A stretch of 64,000 nt of DNA from Ascidiella aspersa (lineage: Eukaryota). Shown piece after piece: positions 1 to 27,000 of this stretch. The stretch lies in the NCBI GenBank assembly GCA_963924565.1, contig OZ004608.1, forward strand, positions 25,358,001-25,422,000, given 5' to 3'. Numbering within the stretch: position 1 is the first letter of the stretch; each line of letters starts with the position of its first letter. The notes beneath the pieces are model-generated. The model was not told the DNA's origin. It did no database searches and saw only the letters and a program-made list of their open reading frames with translations. The position numbers and the translations under genes were made by a program.

Positions 1-3000
1 CTAAAAGGTATTGCGGTCAATTTTAAGTGCGCTGTTGTTTTAATTCTACAAAAGTTACACTATTGGTGTTGTAAAGATTTTTTTCGTGGTCGAATATGCA
101 ACTAATGTTTTCGAACAGGATACAAAAGGAAAAGGATTCAATGACAATTCGACATTTTGAACAAGTCGACAATCCTACATAGAAAATTAGGCTTTTTTCA
201 GCCTATACATAAATAAGAATATTTGATTTTCTGGGGCACGTGATGGTGCAAACCTGTATCGCAGTTCGAAGCTCATGAGTTCTCCTGCGATCTTGGTCGG
301 TTCTTCCCAAGTAACGACCACTCGGCCGTTAGATAAACCGAGGATGAGAGTGGGTGGTCCAGGTACTTTAAAACCAAAACAAGGTCTGTGTTTAAAAATC
401 GAATGGAAACTATTTAACAGCTGTTAAAAAATTGGAAATTGAATTATTTCGTTAGTTACGTTAAAAGCAACTTTTCAAACGTTAAAACATTCGTGACATC
501 AACACTTACTCTCTCCTCTTGTTGACTCCGATACGACGGCACTGAAGGGGCCTGAACTTTTACTCGTAAATCCTGCTACTCGCACGGAGTACTCGGTCTT
601 TGGTCGTAGACCGGTAAGAGTATAATCCTGGAAAAAAATAATTTACAAGTGTAAAAAATAAAGTACACATCGCTTAGTATATAATACACAAAAAAAGTAT
701 ATATCTATTTTTTTTTTCAAAAATTAATGGTTATACCAGTTCTTGATAAATTTAATTGAAACAATGTAAATGCGATTCATTTAATTTCATATCTTAAACA
801 TGAATTTGCCACAAAACAATGCAATTTTTCGTAGCACAGAATGCTGCAGTGTGAAGGGAAAACCAATTAGTCGGAAACAAAATTGCACCATCATCAATAT
901 AGCAAGGGGTCAGTAAAGGGAAGGGGTTAAGGTCATATAAGGGTAAACAGAAACCGGTGGATTCAATGACGGTCCACAGCAGAACGATTACACCAAAAAA
1001 TCATGCTGTTAATTAAGGAAATATCAGCGAAAAAACAATACTCGACAGCCGATGCCGGCGTCGGCAACATGGACGATTAGGTTAAAGCTTGATCACATTA
1101 GTTTTGTATCATGGCCAGTAGTGTAATGCATATTGCTGCCTGCAACTGGGATGCGTCTCACCATTCGCTCAATGCAGAGCTCGTAGCGCTTTCGCGATTG
1201 TCTATTGCCCCGGCACTGAAGACACAAAGTGCACTTAAGAAAAATCGCTGCAATACGCTATACCTTGCTATTGTCACTGTCCGTATTATTGTCACAATAC
1301 GTTTTTCTTATATAAAAATCAATAATCAAATTAGGGGCAGCAGAATACTCTAGCAAAGCTGCTAGCAATTCAGGCCAGACACTATTCAAAGATCTTAAAA
1401 GATATTTATACGCCAGCAAAGGCATTGTCAGAAAATCTTATTAAAATTGAGTTATTTCAACAAGATATACTGACAATGCCTTTGCTGGCGAAAGAAATCT
1501 TTTAAGAACTTTTGATAGTTTTTGACCTAAATTGCTAGCTTTGCATTCTGCTGTTATTGATCAGGAATTAAGATCGACATTTAACCTGTACGGGGAAAGG
1601 TGATTTCCATTATCAAATATTTAGTGCAACATTAATACTATATTTCTCCAGAAAAACGGTATACGCGTTCCTTGGTTTATTTATGAAACGCTAATGGACT
1701 CTTGCAGCAAACGTCGAACAAAATACAAAACAAATACAAAGTAGCTTAACTTTCACAGAAAAAAACTTAATAAGCCAAAAGTGAGCAACATCGCCCAGAC
1801 AAGAGGTAAATCACCCACCAGTCCGCGATTTGGATCCTGGCCAACGAAGTCCTCCATGTAGGTGTTGACGATGCGAGATCTGCTATGCGGTGAGGCCGCG
1901 TACGAGATCTGGTATCCCCGTATCTGGCCGTTGGCCGCCTCAGGCGACACCGCCAGCCAGCGGATACGAATCGCCGAACTGTTTACCGCTTGGAGGTTGA
2001 CGTTGCGCGGAGCAGCTTCGGGGACTGTACGAAAAATTAATAAGAACATTTTGGGTTGCATGCAAAAATCACATACATTTTTCTGTAAAGTCTGTAAAAT
2101 GTTCAAAGTATATGCTGGGAATTAATGTCCTGTTAGAAATTCGGATGTTTTACGACGATAGAATAAACCCGCACTTCCTGTTTACATGCACGTAAATGCT
2201 TTTTGGACAGCGTGCAAAAGGTTTAACGTATAAAAAATTATAAACGGTTCAATAACAAATCAAGGCATAATATATAATTATATCCTTGCTCTTTACAACA
2301 AATATGGGTCAAAATGCAATTATTCATATCTCTCTTTGTTCAACATGAAAACAAACATACTTGACTCGGCTGTGCTTATTTTCACTATTTTGCTGTCGGG
2401 GCCTTCCCCTTCTTCAGTAGAGGCGCACACCCACACCACGTAGTTGGTGTAGGGGCGTAGGCCGGAAATGACGGAACGAGTCTCTTCGGCCCCGACCCGT
2501 TTGCTCATGACGTCATTACGTCGCTCGATTTTGTAGTAGACAGTGAAGGCGGTGAGTTCGCCGTTCTGTTGCTCTTCGGGAGGCGGAGACCATCGAACCG
2601 CAAAGGAGTTGGCGGTCACTTCGCCGGCAACGACATCTAGTGGCGCCGCGGACGGAGCTGTTGCGGTCACGAGGTGGCGCGCCAAACGAAACATGCAATA
2701 TGCGTTGCATTCAGATAAGCATGCGCGAGATACAACATTTACGAGCGTTCGGAAGCAGGTTCGAGTTCGGTGAGGGATCGCGGGTTGTACGTTCACGACG
2801 GACACAACGAAGAAGATGCAAAAGAAAAAAAAGAAAAAAGAACATCAGATAGGAGGTTAAGGGGTTAAACCTTACTGTTACATTACTTTGATTTCTTACG
2901 CAAGTTTAAAACTACATGAATGTTTTTCCAATGCTAAGTCATGATACAAAACGTAGTGATAGTAAATAGCCTCTTGGCCTGGTTATTTATTTTTGTTAAA

Positions 3001-6000
3001 TAGTCTCACTCAGGGTCCGCGTAACGCTTGGGACCGAATAGCACTTTACTTGGGGGGGGGTTATATTATCAGCACGTACAACTGCAAATATCACATAGAT
3101 TTCGTCTTACCGTCGGGGCGCGTTGTCAAAGAAATTAAGGGCGTGAAGGCGCCAATGCCGGTCTCAGTCCTGGCCGCCAGCTTAATCTTGTACTCGGTGT
3201 TCGGGGTTAAGTTGTTCAACACGAAGTTCTTTGCGTTACGGTACATCGTCAACTTGCGCGGCTGCGTAAAAATAAATGAATAAAGGTTTCGGCAACAGCA
3301 GATGAGTTGGTATAAAACTGGTTTTCAGACAGGTGCTTTGCTTAGGGATATTTTTATCGTTTTTGTTGCAAACAGAAACCTGCTCAGCATCGAAATGTAC
3401 TCATAGTTATTTTGTTATATGCCAGTTTTTATTTATCGTTGAGAGGCTACTGAATAAGACTAGAAGCTGGAATCTTGTTAATGTGGCTTTGTACTTATGA
3501 TGCAACGCCCTTGTTGTATTTAAATATAAAAAAGGAAATTTACTTATGTATATGAACATTGCAGGGGGTTGACGTGTCGGCAAGTTAACACGAAACTGTA
3601 CACGGTCGAGAAGCGGGCGTCTGCCTGTGTTAACATCAAGTACGACAGCAGTAGTAAATGACCTATAAGTATGTTGGAGTGATGTCTCCGGTGATAAGCT
3701 TTGCTGTGCGACGCAATGGCTACACGAACATTGAATTTGCAGACGAAAACATGCCCATCAATTTGAACACAGCTAAGAAGGATTGAGGAAGGTTAATCTT
3801 AGGTTCCAATTATGATACAGGAAAAGCGCGTTATGGCTACGACAACAAAAAAATCTTACAAACATACAGCTTCATTATGGCTAGGCGTATACTGTGAGGT
3901 ATCTTTTGAAACTTAACCAGACGAAAGCGAGTTTGTATTGCGAAATAATATTGCGTCACTTTTGCTACCTCTGGACAGGACGAGCCATTGCAGCTGGTGT
4001 AGGAGAGTATGTAGTTGTTGATACTGGGCTTGGGACCGTCCTCGGTGGCTGGCCCGACATAACAAGGCGTGCTCCACTGCAGGCGAATCCGCTTCGACGA
4101 GAGAGCTACTCCGCGGAAATCCTGTGGCTGCGACGGCACTGTAGGCCGAAAATATTGAGTGAGTTTTTTTAGAAAAGAACAAAACTTCCTGTCACAGGTC
4201 AACAGGAAATAATTCATTTTTAAGTTTGGATATTAGGAAGTGGATTGATTTTGCCGAACATCTGGCCTGGCATTACCAGTTTGTACATCTAACTTAAATT
4301 TTACAGTTTTCTGGTAAAACTAACTGGCTGCCTTAAAAATATTGTAATCTGTTTAGGTATTAAAAGCACCACTGGGTCTTGTTATCTTGTGGCATGTCTC
4401 GAAAAATAACACGACTTCGTAATGCTTGTACATTACGAACAAGTTAGGCCTTTAGCGAATAAGCATATACACAATGTTCAAACCTCCTTGGTCGGTCTTC
4501 ACCATCACCATTTCAGACATGGGACCGATGCCGACGGAAGTTGCAGCAGCCAATCGGATCGCGTAAGTTGCGTGTGGCGTCAGGTCCTTCAGTGACGTCA
4601 GGCGCTTTTCGCTCACCAGCGAGTTCCACTCTGAAACGTTTTTATGTTTTTTTTTTTGCATTACGTGCGTATTTGGACTATTGAAGTGGTTACGTAGCAG
4701 TGTTGTTGTCTAACACCGAAAAATTGCTTGACGGTTTCTAGTGAGTCGCAGACGATTTAATGAATTTGTTTTATTTTAAAAACAGCTTTGATGAATCAGA
4801 ACATGAAAAAATAGATCGATTTTATCGATAACGTTTGGATGGAATCAAAAAATTGATTTATTCTCTATCCAGGATAAACAATGCGCCACGAAAGCATAAA
4901 ATATCTATATTTTTAAAGATTTATAGAAAGCTGTAATTTTTTTCCGGACCGAACAACTCGTAGGTTGATTTCTATTCTTTCGCCAACGTAGGTATATTTA
5001 TCCTTCAAATTTTGACAAGCTTTATTATTAGGGGTGCGCCATTAGCGTGCAATCGACTGACAGGCGCAAGAGAAGGAATTTGCGTTACCTTGGAAATTCA
5101 CGGGAAGAAAACTGACATCAGGCGGTTCGCGACGACCGCGCGTTAAAATCACACCGGCAGAAATATCGACAGGGCGCGCATTAAGCGTCTCAATGCATTA
5201 CAGATTTGACGAGGCGCCAAAGCACCGCAGACCACAGTCGAGTCAATATCCTGTCTAATGAGTTCCGGGTGCCGCTTTTCATCTTCCGTGACAATTGATT
5301 TGCCTCGCAGGGGACAGGGGTGGACGCGTGCGCTCATGAATATTTACGAACACGAAAGCGCCGGGGTTCGAAATATGGGGGGGGGGGGGCATAAATAATT
5401 GAAGTCCGACTAGAATGCGATTTCAAGTCCGAGCGCAAACAGCGAAAAATACACGAGTCGGATAAACAAAGCAAAACTATGGCGCGTGTGCGACAGTTAC
5501 AAAGACAATTTCGACCCTTTACATTTCGAATTCGGCAGCACGCTCATCAATATTAATCAGTCGCTCTCACTCAGCATTTCGTAATACGCGAGATGCTTTT
5601 TCAGACGCTGGGCGGCTGAAAGTCGCGTCGGATTTGGACGGTATTAACAAAAACAAAACAAAGAAAAAAACGAAATGTTTCACCGCAAGATAAAACAGGA
5701 TTGGGACTTTAGGTTTCAATGAGCTGCATTATTATAATATGTCTAGGTTTGACAAAAATGTTTTACTTATCGCGCGTTTTTTTAACATAAACGAAGCAGT
5801 GGCGGGATTTTTTCTTTTGTATAGGCTTGCATTCCAAAGATACAACCGTGGGAAAATAAACAATAAAATTTGTCAGACACAAAACGGAAAGTTTCTAGTT
5901 TAAAGGTGGTTGGAGCCACCCAATCTTCTTATTCGACACGCCGAAGGTTTGTCTTAAATAAAAAAAGGTCGAATCATGTGCGTATTTTAATTATCTGTTA

Positions 6001-9000
6001 ATCGTACAGGTGGGAAAAGCGAAAATTTTACATACCGGATATTGGCAGGGCTGGCAGGCTTGTGTAGTAGACACTGTAGCTGGTAACGTTTCCGTTCTTG
6101 CGCAGGGGCTCACCCCAACGAACCATGACGGTGTTGGTGCCGTATGGGTAGGCCTTCACATCAACAGGGGGACTTCCCGGAGCTGAAAATAAACAATCAA
6201 GTTAACTGTAGCTCCATGGGACAACGTTTTTTTTGCGCAATCGCCGCGGTATGAGAAGCAAACTGAACAATACCAGGCCAACGGACGTTAAATGATCGCA
6301 ATTGTTTTTTAGGCAAATAGCCCGGCTGCGTAAACATTCGAAAGGCCAATACTGCCTTTCTAAAGACCGATGCAAAGAAAAGCAAACTTAAACGGGCGAG
6401 AGATGTAAACAGAACTAAAGCGCACCGTTTCGACGAACGCGATCCAAACGGCAGCGAGTATTGCACCTAGTCCGTCAGTGCAATCGCTTCTCGCTGTTTA
6501 TTTACCCTACATGCTCATCCTATGTGTGTCCACAACAGCGAACGACAATCGGTGGGAGTTGCACTGCCGTGTGTGAGAACCGATTAGCCGCGTGCGAACG
6601 CAAAAGATATGTTTAGTTTATCTCAGTTGGGCGAGGAAAGCTAGTGTTGCTCCGTACGTTTAAATGTTGGCAAAGGATAGAAATATACGGAATTTGTTAG
6701 AAATGAGTTCTGTGAATATAACACTAAAATAGATTTTCTTTTTCTTTATGTCCTACACAAAATGCTGGATAGCTAAAAAATACATCAAATTATCATATAC
6801 ATTAAATTAATAAATCGAGGCAGGTAGGTTTTATCTAGCATTTTATCGCAAACATAAGCCCCAGGCAGGACAAAACACAAAGCCTTTTAAATCGGTGCGA
6901 CCTTTTCCATAAAATCGATAGCAATTACCTACTTCCTTTTAAGAGGTCAAGCGCAAAGCATTTAGAGAAAACGAGAACAGCACACGACCATAATTAAAAC
7001 CTTACAGTAAGAAATATTACTTCTGTTTTGTTGTCGTTGATTTTATGTCACAATCTCAATTATATTTAAAATAGAAAGCGCTTAGACCAACCGGACCGCT
7101 GTGCTGTGCGCAATTTCGGTGATAACGAGTTGAGAAAAGGCAGCACAGTACAGCGAGCAAAAAGGAACATCTGGCTGATGTCGCACGCCAAATAAAACCA
7201 GCACGCTTCGGGTCGACCGAATCTAACCGACGGTTTTACGGGTGCACCTGCGCATCAAAAGGCTAAGTCGTGTTTGGGCCACTAGCCAGCATCACGAGTA
7301 TAAGCAAATAACGGGAGCCCGCGCATTTCGGGCTACTGTCCTCTGTGTTTATAAATGTGTTTATAAAAGGGTGAGTGCCTATGGCGTGTCGCCCTCGTCA
7401 CAAAACAAACCACAGGCCAGGTGAAGCGGTAACCTTGCAGGTTCGGTATCAAGAATCTCTAATCTGAATTTTGTTAAAACATTTCATATCCAACAGGGCG
7501 TAAGTAAGCAAAAGGGGGGAAAGTGCTCCAATATATTTTGTCTCGGATAACTGGAATTCATTTTGGTGTGTTCATGTGACTGAAAAAAACCTCAACATTG
7601 ACACATTCGGAACACTTAATAATAAATGACTGTGGTTAAGTGTAAGAAGCCAAAAAGGGGGCGTTCTGTTTTAGAAAAAGAACCTTATAGTTGTGGCCCT
7701 ACCTGCTTCTCCGGTTCTGAGGTACACCGGGGTGCTTTTCGCTCCTTCCCCTTGCTCGTTGACTGCAGCCACACGAATCTCGTACATCGAATAAGGCTCA
7801 AGTCCTGACACTGTGAAGCTGTAAGGAAAATAAAGGGAAATTCAACCTAGGGTTACAACTGTCGAATTGCATTAGGTGTCATAACTACACAGCTTATTAA
7901 GATGATATAGGACAGGTCTACGCGACCTTTTAGGCTTTGCCATTCATTATTAAGCTACACAGCTTATTTTATCGACACCTAGTTTCGTTAAGTTTATCTA
8001 ATTTTGCAATGGGAACGTTGTCCAATCTTTGAAAAGTCTATATTTGTAAAATGTTGTTGTATTTAATTGAATATATGTATCGTAATCCGTAAGCGGAGTC
8101 AAAAAAACAAAAAAATACATTTTTTATTAGGCGATCCGTTGGGCATGAGCCTTTTAAGCGTTATTTGACGTGTATCCGCTTAGTTATTAATGCGATTCTT
8201 AAAAGCTAGATTGGCCGATCCCCAAACGTCAACATGGCCTCGTCGAGATTAAACAGACAATTCTACATTTTTCAAGTTCTTATTTACGTCGTTTTGCAAC
8301 AGAGCTTCACAAATATGAAGATGGTTTTGGAAAAAGAATTAACTTAATGAATTATTGCAAAAGTCGAAACCAAGTGAAGCCATATAACGTTTTAAGGTGG
8401 CTGTTTGTACTGGCCTTAAACCGTCGGGAATATTCTGAAACCTTTAAGGTCCTATTTGCGCAACACGTGACGCAACGTAAGCAAATAACGTCAGAAGAAC
8501 CGCAGCGTATCCGGCATACAGCTAGCGCAGTGAAAATAAAAGACGTATTAAATGGTGAAACGTTGGATAGAAAAAGCGTACAGACTTGCCGTCTAATGGA
8601 GGCCATTGTCAGGAAGAGAATCAAATAAAAAATACGTTTCTTTGATCTGAAACCGCTCGAAGACTATGAAGATCAAACAGTTTCCGAATCTTGGAAACTA
8701 TTTTAGGCCTTACCTTGTGGACGAAACCTGGTACAGGGTTTGGTAAGGCGGCGTACTAAGCATCGGCTTGTAGTAGATGGTGTAGCTGCTAACCGGCTCC
8801 GCGTTGCCCGACCTCCACGTCACAGAGAGCGATTGTGACGAAATCCCTGCGTCACCCAAGCGCCGAAGATCAACAGGAGGCTGCGTCAATACAAGCAGTT
8901 TAAGTAAGTTAGATTTTAACAGGATTTAATACTAGATTGTAAATTTGTAACCATGCTTGCTGATTCTGTCGATTTCTTTGAAGTACTGAAATTGGTTATA

Positions 9001-12000
9001 TGGTTTATTTATTATTCAGAATTTGGAATAAATATTGTTTTTAATTAAAAAATATGCGACCTATCTCGAATTGAATACGTTATGCACCTTGTCTATAGAC
9101 AGAAGACAACCTACATGAAAATAGTACAACTCTATAACACCTGCGCCCTTACCCAGGGGTAATAGCTTGAAACTAAGTGTATTCAACACATATTGAAGAA
9201 ATTAACACGCCTCAGCTTAAAATGAGACATACACAATCAGCCGAAAAGCACCACTTTCAATAAAATACGACATTAACTGACCTTGGGAATGGCCTTGACC
9301 CGCACGTGGGTGGTGACGTTGATTCCATTAATAAAGGAGCTCGCCTCGCATGTGTAGTTGGCCGATTCTTGCACATTCTTAAGCGGAAGCACCAGCCGTC
9401 CGATTACCACCGCCGACTTCTCAGGCAGGACGTCCACGAAACCGTATGGCGTTTCTGTTTTCAGAATAGAAGACAAAAATTGGTAACCGTTTTACAGGAC
9501 AAGTAAAGTGACTCTTTTAGTTTCCTTGTTTGATTTGAAAAGGTTGGACCTACACAACATTCCGAGATTTTATGTGAGCGTTTGGGCCCGGGATAGGTTC
9601 TTACGCATTCATACGCCACAGTGTGACATCCACTAAAGAGCCACGTATATGCCGGTACTTACGTTTGCGCCACTTAACCCTGGGCATGGGAGCTCCTACA
9701 GCCACGCAAGTGATGTTGATGTCGCCGTTCTGCGCCACTTCGTAGCTCGCATGCGGCTTAATTGAAAAGCGCACGGGAACGCGACGCACTGTGGATGACA
9801 AATTCACACTTGTAAGTACAATGTACACTAACAAGAAAGAGCTTGTATAAGTATAGTGCTCATTTAAACTCTTCAGTCAACGGCCCGCCATATTACATCA
9901 AAACTTTCCGAAAATCTTTCCGATAGATGTAACACTTGAATTGATGTTACTATTTTTGTAATCCATATTGTTCGTTGCGTAACCCTTGCACAATCGCGAC
10001 CCTATAGTTTGCGAAGCTCAGCTTATAATTTGAACAGCTTGAAATGGGTACGTTTGCTGCCTAACGTTTATTGCCAATCAGTATAAAAACACCACTACGG
10101 CATTGTAAGATATCTGATTTCGAAGACCCAGTCGTCTGCTTAGATAAACTTTATTTAAGGTAGCAGATTGTCACATTTCTCACGGTGGGCCCGCTGATAC
10201 GTCCAAGTCGACAGAAATATCTTACAGGTAAGGATATACCTCCAGCGGACTACGCAGTTTAAAAATAACAAACTTGCTGCAGTGCTTTGCAAGGCGTACG
10301 CAAACACTACTTTACAACAACAACAGAGACAACATGTTGTGTATGGTTTCTTTTATAAAAAATAATTCTGAAAAGTGTCCTAATGATTTCTAATATTCTT
10401 TGCAAATAGTTGCATATGGATATAATAATTCTGTAACGATATAATTCAATAAACAGCAATTCAGAAAAGAATCATTGCATTAAACAATTGATTCTCGAAT
10501 ACACATCGTCACATATAAATAGCAAAAATATTCCTAAATATGCAAACAATGAAACGAGAATGTTCGCAAAACACGAATATTCCCAAAAACAAAATGAAAA
10601 GTTCATTATTTTGGAAGTGTCAAATAATGAACGCTGTAGTCGTTTTTGTAACATCATGAACGTTTAACTTTACTAATATATACTTACGATCGCGCACTAT
10701 GGTACGATCCAGAAGTAAGATTTCAAGGAAAGAACGAAAGAAAATTAAAATCGATAAGTGTAACACGGATCCATAAAAGAACACCGACATCGGGTTTTAA
10801 GGGTATAATTTTGATATGTTTCGCAAAGGCAAGCGTATGTCTTAGTTATCGATTTTAGATACACGTCCAGACAAAAGGCTGAAAGAAAAACGTTTGAAAC
10901 AAATATAAAAAACATGTAACGCCCGAACTTAACAAAAATGTCAACTTTATTAGAGCCTCGAAATTTGTAAAACTTACATTTTCAAGAGGGATTTTTTCAA
11001 AATGCAGTCAAACCAAATTTTGCTTTTTTACTTTTTCTGTATCTTAATCTACTTGCTTCAAACTTAGCTAATTTTATTGAGATAAAACTATTATTTTTCT
11101 ATAGTATATAAACACAAGAGAGACCGCATAAGCATACGTTAGCTGTAAGGGGGTCGTTAGTTTCCTAAAATATTTGATCAGATAGTACCTTTAACGTAGA
11201 GACGGGCATCGTCAGAAAAGATTGTCCCGAAAGAGTTGCTGGCTGAGCAGTAGTACCTCCCATCGTCGCTGTAGTTGCTTTTGTGAATAGTAAGCGAACC
11301 TGGGAGAAAGAAGCAAGTATATAAACCATCCACCTTCTTAGAGCGATGTCCAAAATATTTTTAGAGAAGGATACACGGATAATCACTTGTAAATACGAAG
11401 AACGAAATTTGTTAAAAATTAATAAACAGACGTCGTTTTCGCTAGGTCGTGTGGAAATTCTTGCACATAAGAAATGCAATCCAAATTAAGAAACACCATT
11501 ACTACCTGAATTAAGCAATCATTAATAGGAGATCAAAACCGATGGGAAATTCGTGTGCGCATGAACCATGTATATTTGATGAGAAACAGTTTATAATATA
11601 AACGGCCCTAATTTTCTTCAATTGTGTCAATCTACGACACCAGATAAAACTCTATTACAAAACGGCGTGCCTTAAATAGGAGCTAGATTTCGAAATAACA
11701 AATCAAATGTACGACTTACAAATTTTGTCAGCGATGCTGCAAACAAACGTTAGCCGGACTAATTTCGAGTTTGGGGCATAAATAATGCAACAACTCCATT
11801 TCATTTGTTGTGCGCATATGTAACGTGACAAGGTCAAACTTGGCGGGTTAAAGGTCACGTTCGTCGAGTAGCTTTAAAATCGAAACTTGCAGCTCGTTGA
11901 TTTTGAGTTCATATTTTCGCTCGTTAAGTTAGCGGTCTTGCCTCATGGGTAAACATCATTATTTTTTTATAACGCTTTCTAGCAAGCATTACGTCACGCA

Positions 12001-15000
12001 ATGTACATCTAACCGGCATACTTTTATACAGTAAAAAAATTATTTGTATTTTACAGATGAAACCAGGTATAGTTGGATTTTCACATTAAGCATCAAACCG
12101 TTTGTTAAACTTTGGTTTTATTTGAAAATGATTATAAATCCTTTTTGAAAGGACTGTTCGATTTCTATATCGATCAAGGTACGTAATGTACTAATACGGC
12201 AAAACAATTAAGCAAAATAAAAGAAACGACTTTCATGGTATGACAATATACAATAGTATAGAAGCCTACGTGCTACATCGCACACACAATGTTACTAATA
12301 GGGAGTACAGACCGCACATACAACAAGGCCGATAAAACCCACGATACGAGTGTTTGTTTAACTATTGCGAACCTATTACGTAAGTGGAAATTTGGTGCCG
12401 CTCTTTTGGTGCCGAAATCACACCGCAACTAAGAATTAGACCTTGTGTATTGGGTACATGTCACCACGCCATGTTAACTACCACTTTGACCACGGTATGG
12501 CTTGGGGAAGTAGGAAAGGTTTTCGAGTTTTTTCTGGGTATACGCCCCCGGCATAACCGTGAAGAGGCACTTTGGTTGCTCCTTTCTCTTTTTTAAGTGT
12601 CGGCAGCTGGAACTGTCTCGACAGCGACGTCGGCGAAAAACAAAAAGGCACGGACGTCAAGGTAATTGCAAGGCGCTCGCAATAAACCTGACACTTGCCG
12701 TGGCCAGACTTTTCCGTTGTTTTTAGGTCGACAACTACGCAGGCTTATCGGAGTCACGATCGGAAGGTTCTTGGTAAAATGTGTGCACAGCTTCCAAACA
12801 GCCACCTAAGCGGCAAGGCACGTTCTCTTATCTTACTGTTTGATTGTCGTTCAGGCAACAGTTTGCATCTTTCTTCTTGAATATGGAAGAAGATTTTTTC
12901 ATTTGCACAATTCTTATAAACATATTAAAAAGCCAAGAAACAATATCGAAATGCCCGTTGGAAAAATTTAGCAAATTTTACCGAATTTACAACGAGAAAG
13001 ACTTGTGTTTAAATAAGGTCGTAAAGCGCGACTTTAAACAACAAATGATACTATATTATTATCGTATCATTGCTTAAACTAACTGACGCAAGACCCAAGC
13101 TAACTATATGTACCCCGGTATATATGTATTTAGTACGTCAAAGTCACCGGCGCCAAGCGAAAGTGATGGCTTAATAAAAAGACAAAGTGATAACTGAAAC
13201 GAAATACGTCAATGTCAACGGTTAGGTGTAGTGTGGGGCAACCATGCAGACAGACGGTTTTATTAAATGATCACGACATTGACGCTGCAAGTTTGTGAGC
13301 GCGTATAAGTAGCAACATCATCTGCAAACCGTACTTTGAGCCTTAACGCCAAACAAAAGTAGGACCTTCACCCCATACAGCTCTGCACAACACGGTAAGC
13401 GATAAGCTAACGCCAGCTTCGGGACTGAAGTGAGCCGTCGCGATCGCTCAGTCACGTACGACTGCAAGCTTGTTTGGATACGACACACAAGGAAGCACAT
13501 CGGGAAGCATAAGGCGGGGTCATGGGTGCAAAAGCTTAAGCAAAGTCGCTGGGGACCAGCTCGCTCGGGCATCGATCTGCTCGCTAAATGGCTGCGCTCG
13601 GGTCGCGGGAGAACAGATCGAAGAAACCCTGCGCCCGCGGCCCGGCGTGTCATTTGCCGAGAGCCGATTTGTCAGAAAATCGCATTAGTTCGACCGTCCG
13701 TTCAATCGAACCTAGTTGGTTGGTTGGCTGGCTGCTGGCAGACGGACTTTACACAGAAGAAGATTTATAACGAAAATATAACACAATGAAGCCGGTTTAA
13801 ACGTTTATAATAGAAACTTCAACAACGTTTGGCAACCATGAAATCACAGTTTTCTACAAAGTATTTAAACTCGTCAGAATATACTTGGCTTTTACGCTTA
13901 AAGTTGCGTTCCTAACTGTGTTGTCTTTATTATAGTTTTATAGTAAGTGTCGTCCAAAAACATACGTGGTCAACTTACTGTAGTAATGCGCACAATACAA
14001 CAGCTAAATATAAACAATTATACCACGTAAGAGCCGTGTGAGTAATGTACCAACTTGCAAATTTATCATTTGGTATGCGAAGTAAGTTATTTCAACAGTC
14101 AGAACCATACCATGCATCCTCCGGGCGTATTTAGCGTTCCCAAGATAAGAGCGATGTGGTGCGGCGGTAATGCACCGTAGATGGTAGGGCTGCGGGCAAA
14201 AGTCAAATCCCAGGGCTTACCGCCGCACCGCGAAATGGGTTTGGCTGGGCCGGTAATGAACGTCGCCCAACAGAGGTGGGGCAAATCGCGTGCAACCCCC
14301 TTTTGCCCGTTTGGTTGCGTTGGGCTGGTTTGGCAGTTGGAGCGCAATTTGTCGTTGGGCCATTATAATTATTTTTGATCACGGTTTAGCTTTGAAGAAA
14401 ACTTTTAAGAAGACATTGCTGTGTGTATGTTGTATTAAGTTTAATGAAATTTTTAAATTAGGGCGCAACTAGTAAGGTTGGTGTTGTTACACTGTTATAA
14501 GGTTTTCATAAATAAATAAAAAATTGTTCACAAATATATGATAGTAATAGTTTTAATTTTGTGAACATTTGAATACTATGGCGTGCCATATTATACCACA
14601 TCATTTGTTAAAAAAAGTAAATATTTAATTACGTGCAAGAACGTAGGCTACTGCCATTTGTTTAGGGGGCTATCTAACTGACAGATTGTAACGTTGAAAA
14701 TACTCAGCCGCTTCGAAAACTTGCGTTAATTACACCCAACACACGGCGCATCTAAAGTGAAGGCTAAATTATGGTGGGTACCCAATTAGGGGCGAACACA
14801 AAACATTGGGTTACTCCCGTCAGGTGCCCATATATAGCCCCACCTTCGTGCATTGCTTCAACCCGGGGGGATTGACCCGCGCGTTTACAGTCAACAGTCG
14901 GCCTATGGCGCATGTGGTAAATATGGGGAAAAGATACTTATGTTAAGCTAAGAAGGATTGATTTTTTTTTCAGTCGGCCTGAACTGAAAAGCGCGATACT

Positions 15001-18000
15001 TGCGTTGCACTAGCATTTAAAATTTACAGTTGAATGTGATCTTTCGTTAAAATAATTATGAATATCGCAAGAAAAGATCTTGATATGCTGGTTTCAGCTG
15101 AATTTATCTTGCAAAAGGCAGAACAACTAAACCCTCAAAATCAACTGCACTCCATTATGGAACTGAAGACGTGGTTTTAAGCGATATACATTTTCCTTTT
15201 TAACCAAAAAGCAGATTCTACCCTGGTCTCATTTTACAATGTGCAAATCTCTCGGCTTTTAGTAGAAAAATAGGAGATCCTATATGTTTTCTTTGTTTTT
15301 TAACTGGTCTGTTTATCTAATTGGTAATAACATGTCTGTTTTTATTTAAGTAATTAACATATTGGGATCGACGTATAAAGGAAAAAGTGCGATGCCAGCA
15401 TAGTAAGCAAATTTTTTTTGCACAGTGGTTTATTGTTAGCCATAAGTATCGCAGTTACTAATACGCACACCATCGGAACAAAATGTCAAAGTCAAACTGG
15501 AAGTGGTTTACATAGGCGCTCTACATGCCTAATTAAAAGCTCAAAGTACAAATTCGATCTTAAGAAAATGCCTTCCGCCTTGTGGGGTGCCGCAGACGCC
15601 GAGACTATGTTTGTGTGCAAAGCGGCTGCTGGCCGTTGCTATGCACGCGAGAAACTGGGGAGGGGACCACCATGTGGGCACGAAACGCGACCAGCAAGGG
15701 GGCAACACAAGGTCCGAGTAGTAATTGGCTTGTAACGAACGGAGACGGTTTCCTTTCGTGCTAAAAGCAGCATCAGTTTTAAATCGGCAGAGAGAACGCG
15801 GCTGATCGCATAGCAGGAGATAGCTGAAACTGGTTATCGCGGTGTCGTACTCGGGTGGATTTCGTGTCTAGTTTGTCGACATGCTTTGCGCAAATAACGA
15901 AAAGGCGTTGTCCCAACCGTTGCTAAAAATTAGCGAGGGAATTCATTTTTTTCGTTAACCACGAACACCGTAATAACGTTTTATAATAGATTTCGGGCGC
16001 ATATATACATATTTGTTATATAACAGTGTTTCATTGCGCACTAGTGTGCTATTTACAAGTCAACATGACTATGCCCATAGCGAGCAATTATGAGTATATA
16101 ACAGCTGGAAAATTTTAGAAAAACGTAATCGTAGGGAGCGGAAAATCTTAGCTGGGTCGCTGAGTCAACCATTAACGGCGTATATGACAGATGGGACTTC
16201 CAAAAACTGCCGTGTCTACCACAGCGTCTCCCTGAACGAGGCAAACTTTTGACCTGGCGCAGCACCGACCGTTGGATCTTCATGCAGCACTAAACACGGC
16301 GGGAATGGCAGCTGACGAAAGCGGTTCACGACCCCGTCGGTGGTCGGAGAGGATTAATTGCGAGACGCATCAACGCCGCTCGTGTGCAAACCTTAGGGGA
16401 TATCAAGGCGGTAAATCTTGCCAGGAATCGCCGGGCGCCGAATGACGAATGCTATAGAGTGCAACAAACGCCCGAATTCATCCTCAGCGTTGTAAGACTG
16501 CGGACCACCCATTGGACTGGTGTTTTGTTGGCGAAGTTAATGCGTCTCATAAGTTAGTCGTTCCGTGATTGAGATTATCACCGGGGCCGATGCGTGGGAA
16601 CAGGATGCGGCGTGATGCGGGAAGATTTAAGGGGGCAAACGGGGGTCGGTGGCAAAATCGTTTGGGTGAAATGTTATGACAAGCTCTTAAAACAATCCGT
16701 GATGGGATGGTTTGAAATGCTCGAAGGCAATGCGCATTACGTCAACGCGTCGATAACATTGCTTAACGAATCAACTGACCATTAAAACTTTGATGATCAT
16801 GCCGGCTGATTTAATTAGTTAAGCTCCAAATTACAGAGCACAATTTACATTTTGATTTTTTATAAAGTGTTTCCGCATCAAACAGAACTTTAAATTTCGT
16901 TTGACAACCCAAAAAAGCGGCTGTACTGAAATGCAAGTCATTTTGAGTCAGCTAGTCAATATGCAATAACGAAAAGTTAAAATTTGCCAAAAATAACCAA
17001 TCCGTCTTCCTATCTGTCGGCGACGCCATAAGTTAAAAGACGACAGCTGCATAAACACGTGTCCAGGCGATCGTCCGGTGCACGTTTGGCTCGCCGCACC
17101 AATCCCAAAAGAATTGAATCTAGTGAACTCGATTAAAATTTGACAATTAAAGGGGAGTTGATGGGTCGCGAGGTCAGAAACCCGACACTGATTTGGCAAA
17201 ATAGAAGAGAAGCGAATGATGAAAAAGGAGAACTTTTAAAGTGAAGATATGTGTTCCGCCCCTCGACTTTTGATTCAATATTGGATTATAAAACGGCACA
17301 CAAATGCAATGAAACGCGCTGGTTCAAAAAGTTCATCCAAGCCTAGTTTACCTGACTATAAACCTAAGGTATTCGTATATTGTTAATTAGAAATTGTGCT
17401 CTAAATATAAGGTCACGGCGACCAATAGCTTTTAACGTGTAGTTGACACACAGCGCGGTGTGAAATTCGCCAGCGGAAACCGCTGTGTTGTTGCCGCGAG
17501 ACCGATGCGCATCGCGCGGGGGAGGGTTACAAATAGTGACGTAAATTCCGGGTAGAGACGAAAAGCGCCGCGGGACCAGCTCGTTCTCGCCTTTCGTAGA
17601 AAACGCGATTTCGCGCAAGATCGCCCGACCGAGCACTTGACCCTAGGTAAACCCGCGCGGCTTCTCACGACACGCCGTATCTTGCTGGAGGTTACTTGGT
17701 GTCATTGCTGTTTTTTATACAGGGAAATCTAGCTCACGAGAGACACTTTTTTCGGCAATTTGCTAGTAATTTATCTTATAGCCAAACCATGACAATTATG
17801 CACTTTTTTATCGCGCTCTTACTAATCTATTTTTCGTCATGTGCCCTTAAATTTTATAATTTCATTTTTTAACAATGTATTTTTAAAACAATCTTCCCGC
17901 TTGAAAGATCAATAATTTAAAAACTAACACTTCAAATTGCTACATTTTTGAATAATTATTTTGGACCTATAGATGTATAACTGCATACTAAACTGTTGGA

Positions 18001-21000
18001 TTCCGGCGCAGTTGTTTGACAAACTAAAATCACACATTATTTAAACCTACATGTGCGCCTCGCCCATTTGTTAGGTAGCTTTCCTATTCACACTAAAAAA
18101 AGGTTAGAACTCTAATTTGTACTACCGTCATGCTGGAGGGCTGTGTGGCCTCCCTTCGTGTATATGGGAAGATGGTCCTTATACCAGGTGATAGTGGCCG
18201 GTGGATTTGCCTCCACGCCGCACTGAAGGGTGATGTCGCGAGTCAGTTCCACTGTGTCCACGGTCGGGTTGATCGCAATATGGGGAAATCCACGCGGCTT
18301 TGAATTTTCTGCAAGAAAAAAAAAATATAAACAAGACGCAATTTCGCACATGCACAGCCAATCGGGTAAATGCTTGCTAACAAATACTTTCGGGTTTATG
18401 CTTTTTCCTATCAACGTTGCTTGGAGTTTGGTTTCTCATCGAGGGATGTCAATCCCGGGTAAATGTGCGGCCATCTTAAAAGTGTATAACTAACATAGAG
18501 CGATATTACTCTGCCCGGTGCTACGACACGATTATCTGTTTACATAGGTCAGAGGCTTAGAGCGAAACCCGACGATAACAAGCAGCGTGTCAACGGATCG
18601 CGGCCCAGTTTTAGAGACTTAAAAAAATAACTTCGCAGGCTGTACGACGACGGACGAGCAAACTAAATCCCGCGGGGGGTGGTGGAATACTGACAAATCC
18701 CATTTGCGCAGCGTTCTGTCCGCGCCAGGAACCGGTTCCCCTGGGCGCGATAATTTGAAGAAGTTTTACGCTGCGCACGAGCCAAATTGATTAAGGGACA
18801 TTTTGCAGGCAGTTAATGCGAACGACCTGCGACTTGGATGCGCTTGGCCATTGGCTAGTGACAGATATGAGTGCTGGGTGTATTTTGAGATCTGCAAATG
18901 GTTGTTATGACGTTTTGGGAGACATAGGCGTGCATTATTTATGAATTTGTTAGTTATAGTACATTTTCAATAATTATAACACGACACCGTATTTGAATCT
19001 TTGTTATTCACGCAATTACTCAGCATTCAATGTTCAGCGTTGAAACTCCATATTGCAGCACATGCGTTCTACAACGCTCAACGTTAAACATTAAACAAGA
19101 AACGCAAAGCAGTCGCGTAAATCCACTACGGTTGTATTTCACAGTAAGTTAAAACAGATTTCCTATAATTCCATGCGAAACCCGACACCAGAACCAACCA
19201 AATCCTTTTTGCAAACAACGTTTAGAAGGCCGATTGAAGAAGTCGACCGGTCAGCTATTGTTTGGCGCGTCTAGCCATAAATCCTATGGCAAGATAGAGG
19301 CGGTGGGGAGGCGTACTGCAATACGATACAGGGACAAACTTTAGTTGGATGCTTTTGGTGCGAAGCGATTCAATTGCGGTCAAAGGTGGGTAAAGCGGGA
19401 TTACGAGATCAGCAAACCGATTGTTCACATTTATACTTTCGGGATAACGCATAACGTGAAGTAAATTGGATTTCGATCTGTTTTTTTATTAGTTTATTTA
19501 CTCAACTTTAAATACTTTGTCATCGTGACTCAACGGACACGGCGTGATTTTGTTTTCGTTAGCTTTGTGCGCCGAGAAACGCATGGGGCGGCGTCCGACA
19601 TGGGAGAGTGGCAGTTGCGTATAGCGAGCACGGAGCGAGCAAGTCGAACGTCGGGTCGCGGATGCCAGTCAGAACGCAAAGAGCATGACACGCGGCAGCG
19701 GCCCGAAAAATCGCGAGCGCCTTTGACACACGGCAAGGTTCAGCTGGCGGACTTGACACAGGGGTCGTTTGATGTGCTACTGCCGACCATCTTTGGAGAT
19801 ATTTTCCCAGGGTTTGCAACTGCAAGCATATATTAACGGCGTCCGGGGTCGGATACCTTGGCCGCCGTAAGGTGACACCTTCTCGGCCTGTCAGCCGGTA
19901 ATTATTGCAATTGCGAACGAGGGAAAATCGCGGTGTTGCCACCCACGCGTTACTACTGGGTACTGGGCAGCAGCTTTCCGGTAGGATGTTAAGGAAGTAA
20001 CTGCTTCTGCATGCAAGAATCGGTTTCCGATAGACACAACGGGGCAACAACCTGTGGCAATGGCCACCCACGAGCGTCACATATTTTTAATGAGCTTGCC
20101 ATTTTTTTGAAGAGTAATAGGAAGTAAAGCCCTCGAAACCAGGGGGTTGACTAAACGCAAAGTCAATTTCGCTAGAGGCGGAAGACGCCAGATCTACTTC
20201 CAACGGACGGTCGAGTTGGCTGTTGTAAGTCGGTACGATCACTTGCATGTAATTTGTGCAATACGTGACAGATATACACTTGAACATGCGGTTCCAGCCG
20301 TAAAAAACGCGACAACGAGATGTCAGACGTTGCAACATAAAAAATGTCCCTTTTATTGTCAACGTTTGTCAAGTCTTGAGGTGGTTCATTGACGATTACA
20401 TCTCGAATTTAGAAAAACGCGATTGATGGTCAACTTCAGAAGCCATATAAAGCGTAGGCGTACCTCGAACTGTAATCCAGCAACCTATATCGAGAGCTGT
20501 CAATCCCGCATGAAATGCTATGAAAATCGCACCGATTTTGGCACCAAAAATAGCCATAGTCGTCAAAAGGGATAAAGATCACGCCAAATCCATATTTTCA
20601 TTGAAATTACCCTGTCAAGCAATAAAGGCCACGCAAGACCGACAGTATATCGCGAAAATTCGAAAAGTCGCTGACACACGCAGCATTGGGCGTCACGTGA
20701 CAAGGGGATGGCCAATCGGCAGCGTTGGACGATTTGGCGAAAGACGACAGTTCAACTGATCGACACATGGAAGCGAGGTGGTCGTGTCGCGGAGTAAGGT
20801 GGGTGGTAACAGTTGGGGCTACGAAAATAGCGCCTGCGGTGAAAGGGGGTGTTGACGGTTGGCGTTGGCATGGCGACGTGACAAAACGCGGACCCAAATA
20901 TTTGCCAAGTTCAAAGTTCCCTTCCTGTGTTGCCGCCTGAGGTTATTATTAAACGGTTCGACAGACGTAGAACACAGTGCTCAAATCTTTTGGGGAGAAA

Positions 21001-24000
21001 TGTGGCATTTTAAAAGAGTTATTTTCAAACAAAAGTGATTTATGCGTGTTTTACGAGTTGCCAAAAGATTTTGCACGGAACGGGTGTGGCTCATTTCGTC
21101 ACGGGTATCGATAACGTTGCAGCTGTGTGTAAAAAAATGTTATAGAACAGTGGTTCTTAACCTTTTTAGCTTACGGACCGGTGAAATTTCAAAACAAATT
21201 TTGCGGACCGGTGGACCTTTAAAAATCAAAATCAACCCAAAATGTAATTACGACAAAAGTATGCACCTTAAAAGCAAAGACTGGAAACTTCAATTAAATT
21301 AGCAAATCTGCTGTCTTTCTTATATCATACGTGGTATACGAAAGTTTTTCACACACAACTATAAGACTTCAACGACGTGTAGCCTACTTATATACAGTTG
21401 GGCACAACACTGGGCATTGTAACCTAAAGTTCAGCCCAAAGTAGACAATTAACTTTATGTTACGCCACAATACTGCAAATTACGGAACTGGCGAAGTTCT
21501 TAATTTGGTGAACAAGCTTTTAACATCTTGCATTTTGCAATTGAGATATAAAATTGTAATATATTTGGCGGACCGGCACCGGTCCGCGGACCGGCGGTTG
21601 AGAACCACTGTTATAGAAGACCCACAGAGTTTTGGCATCTCGGGCAAGATTAGGTACATTTCAAAATGCTTCATTGTAGAGCAAAGTTTGCATTTGAGTA
21701 ATATCTATGACATTATCCGGTTCATCACTTTGTTATCAATGTAAAACAACATTGTTTTTCGGCGAACATTTGCAGTACGAAATGACACGAAGATAATTCC
21801 GACCAACAATGTTAATGTGGAATATCTCAAACCAAACAGGTTCACTAAAAAAAAAAAATGCGAATCGTACTTGGCTTCATTCTGTCGGCTTCATATTGGC
21901 TGCCAGCGTGGCAATAGGCAGAACCTGCCATTTTCTCCACGTTTAAACCGCATTGGCTGCTTGTTGTCTTGTTTGCAATCGCTTTGACTACCGACAGACC
22001 ACAAAGCCGTGTTTTTGGCCAACAGCTTATCTCAGGAATTACACGGGATTTATCCACGACGCCATAATGCATTACAACATCGGCGCACACAGGCCAGATG
22101 ACTTTCCGCGCATCGAGACCACGAAATAACGACGTCATCGAAAAACGTTATTTTTGCGACAAAAGGCCGCGGCATCTGCGGTGCTAATCAAAACAGGATC
22201 TTCGCTTTTGGTCCCTTTCAAATTCGAGATCAGTTTGTTTTCTCGTGCTGCCTTGCTCTCTGAAGTCCAACGCTGGAAGAATACCAAAGTCGTGATTGTT
22301 GACGCGGGTTTACGTTGTCAGTTGCCCCGCCAACGATGGTTTTGCGGCTCGTATTTTTAGGACTAAGTGACGTGGATCAAAGCGTACACCGCGCGATTAT
22401 GCTGGATATTCTTTGGAGGAATCTTAGTTTTATGATTAATCGTCATATTTGTTTGCCGGGTTCAAGATTTCTATTTAAAAAAAAACTCGCTATAACGGGT
22501 TTAAAAGCTCAGCTCAGCATAGCGCTTCAACCGGATTTGAACAAGCACACACAATTGGCTATATTTGCGGAATGGATAAAAAGAGCAATTTCTTTTTCGG
22601 CGGTGAATAGTTCTATTTAATCGAATTGAAAATTCGCCATGTCATCTCAGCCAATGTGGGAAAGTATGTTAAAAAATCTAGCCTTCCGCTATTCATGTGT
22701 CTATACCCCAGCGTCGTGTGATTCAGATCGAATTAAATTTAAAACAAAGGCAAGCGGCGAGCGAAATTGGCAAATACGTCCGCTCCCAGGCATATAGCCT
22801 TTCAACTTTTCCAAAACAACACGTACAGCGACGAGCACACGGGACCAACGCTTTAATACACAAAAGGCAAGTTCCGAGGGTCGAAAAGTTGCACAACAGA
22901 AGGGTTGGGAAAATAGGAAGATTGTTTTTTTCACGCGCAACAAAATTAGCCGTAAAATGCTCTGTGAATAAATGAACAGCTATTTCTGCATTGATGTCAT
23001 ATATAGCCAGTACAAATTACTACAGTCACACAGCGGATTTAATTAATAGGTATAAGTCATTTTTCAGACTTGCTCGCGCGAAGTGCTTGGCCGAAAGAGA
23101 CTGGCCGATGGGCATTGCGTAACACCAAACTGTGGCACTAGAATATATTACTGAATTTAATTGTGACCGTCGTCGAGGTAATTTAAGTCTCAGACCATTA
23201 TAGCATTCGACTGTGAGCGACTGTCAGGAATTGTCACATGATTCCGATTTAACACCAAAACGTGAAATTATGCAAAACGAATTTCAGAAATTTGCCCAAA
23301 ATCTGGGTGGGGAGGAGAAGAAGACATCAATGGTATTTTAGAATATAAATGGCTTAAAGGCACATTTAGCATTGCTTGGTACATTGGGTAGCTTGAAGAA
23401 CAATGCTACAATTCCTGGATTATCGGGTTGTGTCTGAGAAAATTTCCACCGAGGTAAGACAAAAGAGTTCGCACAGAGCATTTTAGCCGACTGCCTTCCA
23501 GACAAATGTAACACGGCACTGGCCAAATTTGGTAAAGGATCAAGGCGCCTTTCTGCAGGCGGAATACCTGGCTTATCGGTGACCAGATCGGGGCGCGACT
23601 TGGCGGGCTTAAAGATCAGTATCTTGACTAGTCGAGCCAGGCAGTGGCATCGCGACAGGTAGCTCGCCTTAAACGTATAAGTCCCGTAGATCAATCTGGG
23701 CGGGTGTGGGTCAAACGTGCAACGCCGACTCTGGATACACAATGAGTGGGGCAAGCATTTGCGCAAACACACCCAGCCACGTCATCAGCTTTTAATAGAA
23801 AACTAAAGAAGGTGACAGGGAATCTAGGTTGGGCAAGACAGAAAACGAAAGTAGAAGATTATGCTTCTAATGTTAGGCACAATGATGAAATATTTAGGTG
23901 AATCATTTGTGGTATTAAAATGGCTGCATTTCAGCAGTATATATTATGTAATAGAGCTGCCATAATCATTCCTTAATTCCGCGAATTTGCTTAGCGGCCG

Positions 24001-27000
24001 ATGGCCTGAATTCGAGTGCGTGTTGCTGCGAAGATGAGAGGGGTCTGGGTGACTGGATAACGCCTAACGCTCGGCCATTGTCGACTGTCACGCGAGCCTC
24101 CAGCATCGTCGGCTTCTTGAATGGGTGCGGGCGCGAGACGACCGGCGTTGAGTCAACAGTCCCCGCAGTCTGACCGCGATTTGGCGACAACACACTACAT
24201 CGCGCCCTGTTCGATCAAAACCGGCGACCGACCCGTGGCCCAACGATGACTTTGTCAAGTGCTGGCGGAGTTAAATGGCGTGCTGTGTCCCGCAGTGGTG
24301 TTTAACGACGGTGATGGGTGGGATTGGGCCGTGCTTGCTCTCGAACTCAAACTGGGCGTTTTTATCGGCTTCTTTGCTAACTTTTTGTGGCATGTTTAAA
24401 TCCGACATACCGATGTCTTGATTAATTGGGTATGCCTACACTTATCAAAGCACAGCATATTGTAGCTTGGCCATCAAAGAAAAAAAACGCCCGATATTAA
24501 ATCAGGTCATACACAAGTATGTATTTTAAAATGAGCAAATCACAGTTAAAAAATTGTTCATTTTTTTTGCATCATACGGAATCGAAGTACAAAAAAGGCA
24601 ATGCGTCTGGGTTTTATCCAATTACAGGTCACTTAGTCAGACAGTTTACAATGATTTATTTATTGCGGATCGGGTGTATTTAGGCGTTCGAAAAAGGGAC
24701 GGAGCGGTAGCAAAATGGGTCAAACCGTATTGAATCAACGGCAATAAATCGCTTAAGATTTCAATCAGAAAACATCGAAATAACCGTTTCTCCCTCCTAA
24801 ACGACCTTCGGTGCCACGACATTCAAAACGGCCATCTCTAAATGGATAAATAATGCTTTGGAAAGAGTAACTTCGAAAAACTAATACAGATTTATGTCAA
24901 TCCAATCACAGGGTACTTTAATCTGTTTTCCGAAGTAATCCCATCCACAACATCCCTTTAAAATTCAGATTTGAAGTTAAATTCAGATTTGAAGTGGAGT
25001 TTAAACAGCGTGAGCGCAACGTTTTGATATGCAAGGCTAAGGGGCAGCACTGACACTTGGCATGAATCACAGCAGTTACACAGCTCACGGGGTTATTGCG
25101 ATCACTGTCCTGAGCGGGCACTTAGCGCACTTACATCCGTATACCGAGGGCGCGGCTATATCGGGAAGCGATTAGAGGAAAGCGGGAAGCAATTGGGCGC
25201 GCACATTGAGCACCAAATGGTGCGTAAACCGCTCCCGCTTGCAATGCTGTATGATAAGTTGATCTCTACTGATGTCGCTAGCCCTTTGTTTCTTGGTTCG
25301 CTTCGGCCAAGGTAAGCGATGATGACCGTAATAACGTTGATATTGTCTTGGGCCGGCCTAAATGGCACCGAAACTTGGGTTAAGATGAAAGGGGCCCAAC
25401 GCACAATGAGTCATTTCTCGGCTCGATTCGCAACGTGTAAACCAACACATACCAGCGGAGATGGTTATAGTAATGACGGCAACTTGACGCAGCAAAACGG
25501 TCTTCGTATGGACTGCGACGCGCCTTGAATGCAGGTTTAGACGAAACTTGAGACGAACATCGATACAGCCTAAACGAACTACGCGGAATCATTTAAAGGG
25601 TTGTTGGATGTGCGTAAGGACTCGTGTCTCCACGAAACTCAAGTCGTTTTCGTCTTTGGGTCGCATCACGCCGACACAGGTTTTCAGGAGCTACAACAGG
25701 CGGTGTCATGTGTTTAGGAACCGCCTTTAAAAAATCCAATTGTAAGGCGTCCGTTTCAAAATCGAGAGTTCCAAATAAAACAGACCGGGCGTTCGCCTTC
25801 CAATATGAAGCAATTAATTGCGCTTTTCAAAAGGCTTTCGGTCTAACGCTATCGTACGCTTTGCTCAGGCCTTCGCCAGCAAAGTCGCGCTCGTGTCTTT
25901 TCACTTGTAGCGTGACCGGTGCAGGCACAAAGGCAAGAGATATTGGACACGCCCGGTCCGAGCGTCAAACGGTGACAAAAGGAGCGGCGCGGGATTGTGT
26001 TGACGCGTCGTGTCGGTCAATCAATATTAAACGGCTCTATGGCCCATCTGAGACAGAGTGCAGCGTGACGGCTTTAGAAATCGGCACCAATGATTGCAAC
26101 GGACTAGTCGTGGAAATGTTTACGGGCGACTGGTGATTGGGCGTTCGCGATGGAAGCTGGCGTCAGTCGAACTCGCTTGGCGCAGCAAAACAAGGCAATA
26201 AAAGCTCGACAATAAGCGCAAGGTCGCGCTTCGGCTAACTGATGCACTTTTTACAAGCGCAAAACAAAAACACATTGACAACAGCTGAGCGTGCGCTTTT
26301 CCAAATCGGGCAACGTATCTTCCGCAGCGGGTGGCTTTGGCGTCCCGCAGGCGCGCAAATGGATTTGACGCGATTTTACAAGCGGCCTGTTCCCGTCGCC
26401 ATTAAGAGAACTCGGTCGTAAAAAGATCGGCTGTTAACCCTGGTGCAGACACGGGGCTTTGTATCCGAAACTGCAAATCCAATAACTCCAGTTGGGGCTC
26501 AAAAAGAGATAAAGGAGAATCGTGAGAGTTGTATACATAAGGAGAGAGTGAGATAAGGCATTCCGACATGATTTAGCAACTGATGTAACGGCAGATTCTC
26601 TCGATTCGCATTTACCATCCCAGCCGGCCTGTCGAACCCTGACAAATGGCCCGTAAACGACGAACGGGCGCGATTTCAATCTCTATTTGGCTCGGTGTAC
26701 AGTCAACAGTCGTATTTGTCGTCGAGCGCGGTTAAGACCGTGTAAAACCGACGAGTGGCGAAACTCGGGTAGTTATACCGCCACTACTGCGTTCCAAACG
26801 TTGCTTTGGTTTCCTTCCCTTGGTAGGCCGCTAAGTGTTCGTCCGAAGAGATTTCTACACTGGCGTAGAGAGAGAAAAGACCTAGGGGCGGTTGCTGGGG
26901 TGTCGACTGTAGCCTGCAGGACCTAAGCTTTGTACAAGTGTCCCTATCGCGTAGTAATAACAACACGTCGCCGGCGTGAAGGATCACAGTTGTGCGCAAG

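Follow-up and report, generated by a model that had tools for sequence, protein, structure and literature searches.

The locus described here raises the question of whether a splice switch known from vertebrate receptor tyrosine phosphatases has a counterpart in a tunicate and whether the two share an origin. In the LAR-RPTPs of vertebrates (receptor tyrosine phosphatases of the LAR type), the microexon meB comprises 12 nt between Ig2 and Ig3 (PMC10883964) and encodes ELRE in PTPRD and PTPRS and DQRE in PTPRF (PMC6078854). In the available text of the literature cited, meB is described in vertebrates only, and meB-type exons are treated as vertebrate-conserved (PMC12626420); neural microexons in general are largely shared among vertebrates, and their conservation drops off fast already in amphioxus (PMC8797185). 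Literature searches covering titles and the beginnings of abstracts returned no report of a tunicate or other non-vertebrate meB. The window, i.e., the whole 64,000-nt stretch of Ascidiella aspersa DNA that was analyzed, holds a 9-nt candidate in the corresponding intron of a LAR-type gene, and its splice signals and a counterpart in a second species make it very probable that this is a real microexon that is spliced in.

The host gene lies on the minus strand and comprises the following parts:

187..36035, minus strand: LAR-type (type IIa) receptor tyrosine phosphatase gene, whose limits are given by the outermost reading frames and not by mapped exon ends
18126..18308, minus strand: exon for the N-terminal half of Ig2, after which the intron occupies the meA position
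11189..11299, minus strand: upstream exon, for the C-terminal half of Ig2, ending in phase 1 after YVK
9664..9788, minus strand: downstream exon, encoding Ig3's N-terminal half (RRVP...), in phase 1

Within the window, exons for a signal peptide, Ig1–3 and FN3 domains are found, and the gene continues past the window start into the TM, D1 and D2 exons (L001, L002). The best PDB matches of the downstream exon are the Ig3 domains of PTPdelta and PTPsigma, identity to a shark PTPRD-like protein amounts to 56–80% in D1 and 84–95% in D2, and the Pfam domains agree with the LAR type; a query of the ESM Atlas with one FN3 exon returned generic FN3 clusters only. The PDB and Pfam matches and the exon phases bear out the initial annotation, which had placed the site in the meB intron of a LAR-type RPTP with the reading frame kept. 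Since the D2 exon has a single strong match in the 308.6-Mb genome, the host is probably the only LAR-type gene present.

The intron between the upstream and downstream exons is 1400 nt long and contains the following elements:

10688..10696, minus strand: candidate 9-nt microexon, phase 1-1, adding 3 residues to the Ig2–Ig3 linker (basis: sequence, shuffles and background, counterpart in locus L006)
10697..10699, minus strand: acceptor TAG (basis: sequence)
10681..10687, minus strand: consensus donor GTAAGTA (basis: sequence)
about 10711..10748, minus strand: displaced pyrimidine tract and branch-point-like TTAAT, inside a 142-nt AG-free zone

The minus strand from 10696 to 10688 reads TGCGCGATC, preceded by TAG and followed by GTAAGTA, and the initial annotation of 9 nt between these signals, with a pyrimidine tract displaced upstream, is exact. 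The tract (approximately 10744–10711) is separated from the TAG by an 11-nt spacer, TTAAT occurs at −52, and the AG-free zone of 142 nt compares with 18–62 nt at four constitutive acceptors of the same gene. The candidate keeps the frame in this phase-1 intron between the Ig2 and Ig3 exons, so that skipping gives YVK-V-RRVP and inclusion gives YVK-VRDL-RRVP; the change from YVK-VRRVP to YVK-VRD-LRRVP that had been claimed is thereby reproduced from the flanking phase-1 exons. Two DNA runs carrying the same species label leave the 9 nt and the splice sites unchanged and show a single change 16 nt into the downstream intron.

A scan of genome contigs yielded no locus and one of metagenomes 44; among these, L006, L008 and L009 share one identical 2149-nt intron and are counted once as L006, and L007 is too short upstream. 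L006 is probably derived from another, distant tunicate: it groups with the window gene at 100/99 on a long stem, where long branches can attract, in a tree built without rows P0058, P0109, P0080 and P0287, and the two proteins are 58% identical over 173 residues of the Ig2–Ig3 region. The L006 exon that matches 11299–11189 of the window is also 111 nt long. The window site had been picked in the initial annotation, and the second species therefore provides an independent test. Its intron contains exactly one YAG..GTRAGT candidate with a length divisible by three, which is 9 nt long (L006:8176–8184) with an AG-free zone of 46 nt; inclusion would give YVK-KRVV-RRVA, as opposed to YVK-I-RRVA upon skipping. 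A strict candidate was defined as an exon of 3–27 nt, divisible by three, within YAG..GTRAGT, with an AG-free zone of at least 40 nt and a pyrimidine fraction of at least 0.65, the latter two thresholds having been set after both candidates were known. On this definition, each of the two orthologous introns (1400 and 2149 nt) holds one candidate, and both are 9 nt long with CG at positions 3–4 and G at position 6. Codon 2 is Arg in both, the residues being V-R-D in the window and K-R-V in L006; a check of conservation in related species had been proposed, and in L006 both the length and the Arg codon recur. The two exons agree at 3/9 nt, and the flanking introns show only a weak local match (score 19); given this weak match and the 58% protein identity, the common 9-nt length is therefore not due to general sequence conservation. 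Hairpins over the acceptor were not above shuffles in either species (z −0.74 to +1.22), and at the meA position the five loose candidates of the window intron and the four of the L006 intron included none alike in both length and sequence.

The candidate resembles vertebrate meB in its gene family, in the phase-1 Ig2/Ig3 intron and in preserving the frame, and in both tunicates, as in meB, an Arg codon with a G-initial codon after it lies equally far from the Ig3 exon. The account of vertebrate meB as a 12-nt exon encoding ELRE agrees with PMC10883964 and PMC4437028 and with a fish locus (L020:426–437), where it measures 12 nt. While meB comprises 12 nt and four residues, the window and L006 exons comprise 9 nt and three residues, and are therefore called meB-like rather than meB. 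The donor is a consensus in the window, in contrast to GTTGGT in fish meB. Aligned with the final 9 nt of fish meB, the window exon agrees at 6/9 positions and the L006 exon at 4/9; CG at positions 3–4 and G at position 6 are common to all three. The resemblance of VRD to LRE had been taken as a sign of common ancestry; this argument is weakened by L006, since its K-R-V leaves Arg as the only residue common to all three, and the acidic residue that follows Arg in meB (Glu237) is Asp in the window and is replaced by Val in L006. This Arg, the third residue of meB, is conserved (PMC4437028; ELRE and DQRE in PMC6078854). The Ig2/Ig3 intron position itself, present in 13 other invertebrate loci and absent from three further ones, is ancient and says little taken alone. 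On balance, it is modestly favored that the microexon and meB go back to one ancestral exon and that the tunicate form has one codon less.

The case for common descent is nonetheless weaker than the initial annotation had it. Positions 10688–10696 match the first 12 nt of the downstream exon (9777–9788) at 8/9 positions once one Arg codon is removed, and L006 8176–8184 likewise matches its own downstream start (9999–10010), an Arg codon again being left out, at 8/9, a closer fit than either exon shows to meB or to the other tunicate exon. Against the template of the other species the score is only 4/9, and at the four positions where the two templates differ, each exon follows its own. Among random pairs with C/G/G fixed and the best of 34 templates taken, this score was reached in 16/200,000, although the pattern is post hoc and involves two species. 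The shared Arg is equally explained by the likeness of each exon to its own downstream neighbor; the argument from the shared Arg is therefore weakened, and the main rival becomes an origin in which the start of the exon was duplicated, in one event or in several. Thus, for the proposed homologous 3-aa microexon, the intron, the frame and the 9-nt counterpart in a second species stand, whereas Arg no longer speaks for homology in particular.

Under this rival, an optional microexon would have arisen within tunicates, once or more, when the acceptor and opening codons of the Ig3 exon were copied locally, and its spacer role would be convergent with meB. The match of each exon to its own downstream start favors such an origin, as does the gain of exons in the same intron elsewhere, namely a 5-residue GATDTL-type insert in 17/120 of the proteins listed (teleosts), and microexons at the same position in fly and mammal are mostly judged convergent (PMC8797185). 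However, the intronic sequence upstream of the microexon resembles the downstream acceptor in its final few bases only, and two origins would each need the loss of a codon and the gain of a consensus donor. In fish, meB agrees with the start of the exon downstream of it at 5/12, and both exons could thus go back to one ancient duplication. We regard convergence as unlikely, though it is the main competitor to common descent. A history that combines both is a long shot: meB would have been born in the tunicate–vertebrate ancestor as a duplicate of the Ig3-exon start, vertebrates keeping four codons and a ligand-read Arg and tunicates three as a pure spacer that still tracks the downstream start. 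If true, such continued tracking would point to an unrecognized homogenizing or selective link between a microexon and its neighbor.

The microexon, whatever its origin, is quite likely optional, and probably neural, judging from its size and its weak, displaced 3′ splice site. Regulated microexons combine a long AG-free zone, a displaced tract and a strong donor (10.1101/2024.09.17.613571; PMC8797185), and the candidate shows this eMIC/SRRM3/4-type layout together with the length of eMIC/SRRM3/4-dependent neural microexons, i.e., a multiple of three below 27 nt. UGC is absent between the branch point and AG in the window species, and L006 has TGC at −6 and −31; 21–26% of SRRM3/4 targets also have no UGC near the AG (10.1101/2024.09.17.613571), and UCUCU/UGC enhancers lie upstream of mouse meB (PMC13080001). 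The layout would fit low default recognition with neural enhancement. As regards Nova and Rbfox, neither tunicate intron has a dense YCAY cluster or TGCATG, the first 250 nt downstream containing four and five YCAY sites. A Srrm2-like gene is present in the genome. The Pfam domain SRRM_C (PF15230), which we take to cover the eMIC region, was found neither in the genome nor in eight reading frames at the two cwf21 loci, a weak null for an exon-split domain searched with no positive control. The tail of the Srrm2-like gene (L052 7042–9696, minus strand, G000:C2) presumably resembles no more of the eMIC domain than its first half; it is short, basic and Pro/Ser-rich, with no second eMIC half in the 1.4 kb downstream. 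Loss or divergence of eMIC in this lineage is possible.

Ciona Agrin offers a parallel, in which the Z microexons of 6 and 5 aa (Z6/Z5) lie at a vertebrate synaptic splice-switch position, were missed by annotation and keep a short key motif of the mammalian Z8 exon (PMC12445529); they serve as a precedent for the present candidate. However, Agrin is another gene, and its exons are cDNA-shown and Nova-dependent via 18 YCAY sites (PMC12445529), whereas YCAY is sparse downstream of the candidate.

RNA was available as run X5, added by species label and read to approximately 6%. It placed 24 reads on 9200–18500 and 160 mostly partial reads on 1–12000, and three reads joining 365 to 510 across a minus-strand GT-AG intron show that the host gene is transcribed and spliced; depth was zero over both flanking exons and the microexon, which makes the run uninformative on inclusion either way. 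Four protein searches (0, 150, 120 and 120 matches, three of them limited to 2000 residues) listed no tunicate protein spanning the linker, and the closest matches listed are gene calls of a single exon; this isoform may already be present in existing tunicate gene models. Among the matches listed, a one-residue linker, the length of the skipped form, occurs in 65/120 and 60/118 homologues, ELREV occurs in 10/120 and 14/118, and no insert is seen in invertebrate proteins with a readable linker (44/118 being unreadable in one set). The fish model P0236 (1/120 listed) has a 3-residue insert, GRT, whose Gly start resembles intron read-through, and it was not counted as support. Teleost PTPRS-like models (P0188, P0196, P0199, P0201, P0211 and others) carry the extra 5-residue GATDTL-type insert at the meB site, alone in 8/120 and after ELRE in 9/120 of the proteins listed, which suggests a second microexon in the meB intron of fish.

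If the tiny exon were instead constitutive, all transcripts would include it, and the tunicate linker would be three residues longer with no switch. The consensus donor and the very long AG-free zone would suit such an exon, mouse Ptprd is mostly meB-positive in brain (PMC10883964), and neither isoform appears in run X5; however, skipping restores the usual one-residue linker of the listed homologues, and the displaced 3′ splice site is unlike the other acceptors of the gene, which renders constitutive inclusion improbable.

With regard to chance, 2000 dinucleotide shuffles of the 1400-nt window intron gave a 9-nt YAG..GTRAGT in 35/2000, any exon of 3–27 nt divisible by three in 253/2000, a strict candidate in 3/2000 and a strict 9-nt candidate in 0/2000; shuffles of the L006 intron gave a 9-nt YAG..GTRAGT in 44/2000 and a strict one in 0/2000. 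In 251,486 bases of real background DNA (the window on both strands, L001–L005 and L006), 3/38 candidates were strict. In the complete introns of other invertebrate loci (13 introns with 21,496 nt in all; seven of at most 232 nt; several from the same species), strict candidates numbered 0/13, soft blanks because the strict scan would miss fish meB with its GTTGGT donor. The only other strict candidate in the window, 25135–25155 (minus strand, Ig1/Ig2 intron), comprises 21 nt flanked by TAG and GTAAGT, and its AG-free zone measures 74 nt; inclusion of these 21 nt would bring a stop codon at the next exon, which makes it a chance site or a poison exon. Although 253/2000 shuffles hold some candidate of suitable length, strict candidates can be spurious, as 25155–25135 illustrates, and run X5 lends no RNA support, a chance AG–9 nt–GTAAGT in intronic DNA is very improbable, given that a distant species repeats both the length and the Arg codon in its orthologous intron and that strict candidates number 0/13 in other invertebrate introns. 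Separately, an insect-like Lar locus has in the same intron a 3-nt candidate with a 102–114-nt AG-free zone and a weak donor (L038:3618–3620, L039:3648–3650).

Returning to an optional microexon, its probable effect can be set against what is known of meB. A changed binding to Slitrk, IL1RAPL1/IL-1RAcP, SALM, TrkC or NLGN3 characterizes meB. Slitrk2 directly binds Arg236 of meB together with Arg233, which lies three positions ahead of it, and the R236E mutation eliminates this binding (PMC4437028); for IL1RAPL1 and IL-1RAcP, meB acts as a spacer for which GSSG or QLEQ can substitute (PMC4423211). The view of meB as a linker-length switch thus stands as far as the spacer role is concerned and is incomplete with respect to Arg236. 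Whereas Arg236 follows Arg233 by three residues, Arg in the window and L006 follows the Arg233-equivalent lysine by two; it is in register when counted from Ig3 and two residues after the lysine when counted from Ig2, and the vertebrate Arg233/Arg236 spacing read by Slitrk is thus not kept in the predicted proteins. Because this two-residue distance from the lysine is just what the skipped form has, hinge length alone is the likely effect: the Ig2-proximal K-x-R would be identical with or without the exon in both species, and only the distance and angle to Ig3 would change upon inclusion, so that the exon would work by spacing and not by a code of side chains. We propose, with slightly more for than against it, that an optional microexon adds three residues, lengthens the Ig2–Ig3 hinge and likely changes the set of partners that the receptor can clamp, as meB does.

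If true, the LAR-RPTP hinge switch would predate the vertebrate genome duplications and would be present in an animal that probably has a single LAR gene and whose larva offers a small and tractable nervous system. None of the inserts listed in the available text of PMC4423211 is shorter than four residues, and a natural 3-residue insert, lying outside these lengths, would separate the spacer role of meB from the reading of its Arg. In addition, the likeness to the downstream exon start provides a testable idea of the origin of the microexon.

Further genes were observed in the genome. A 34-Mb contig contains a cellulose synthase gene with GT2 and GH6 domains (L056; G000:C5:19610001–19620000), and the combination of these domains in one gene marks tunicates among animals, which makes a tunicate the likely source of this genome. 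In the window, a minus-strand reading frame at 46400–46783 has a weak match to Vasculin below the Pfam cut-off. After the phosphatase gene, two tandem sugar-transporter-like genes, with the family judged by eye, follow on the minus strand (L002 and L003), and the reading frames of the L003 copy look fragmented.
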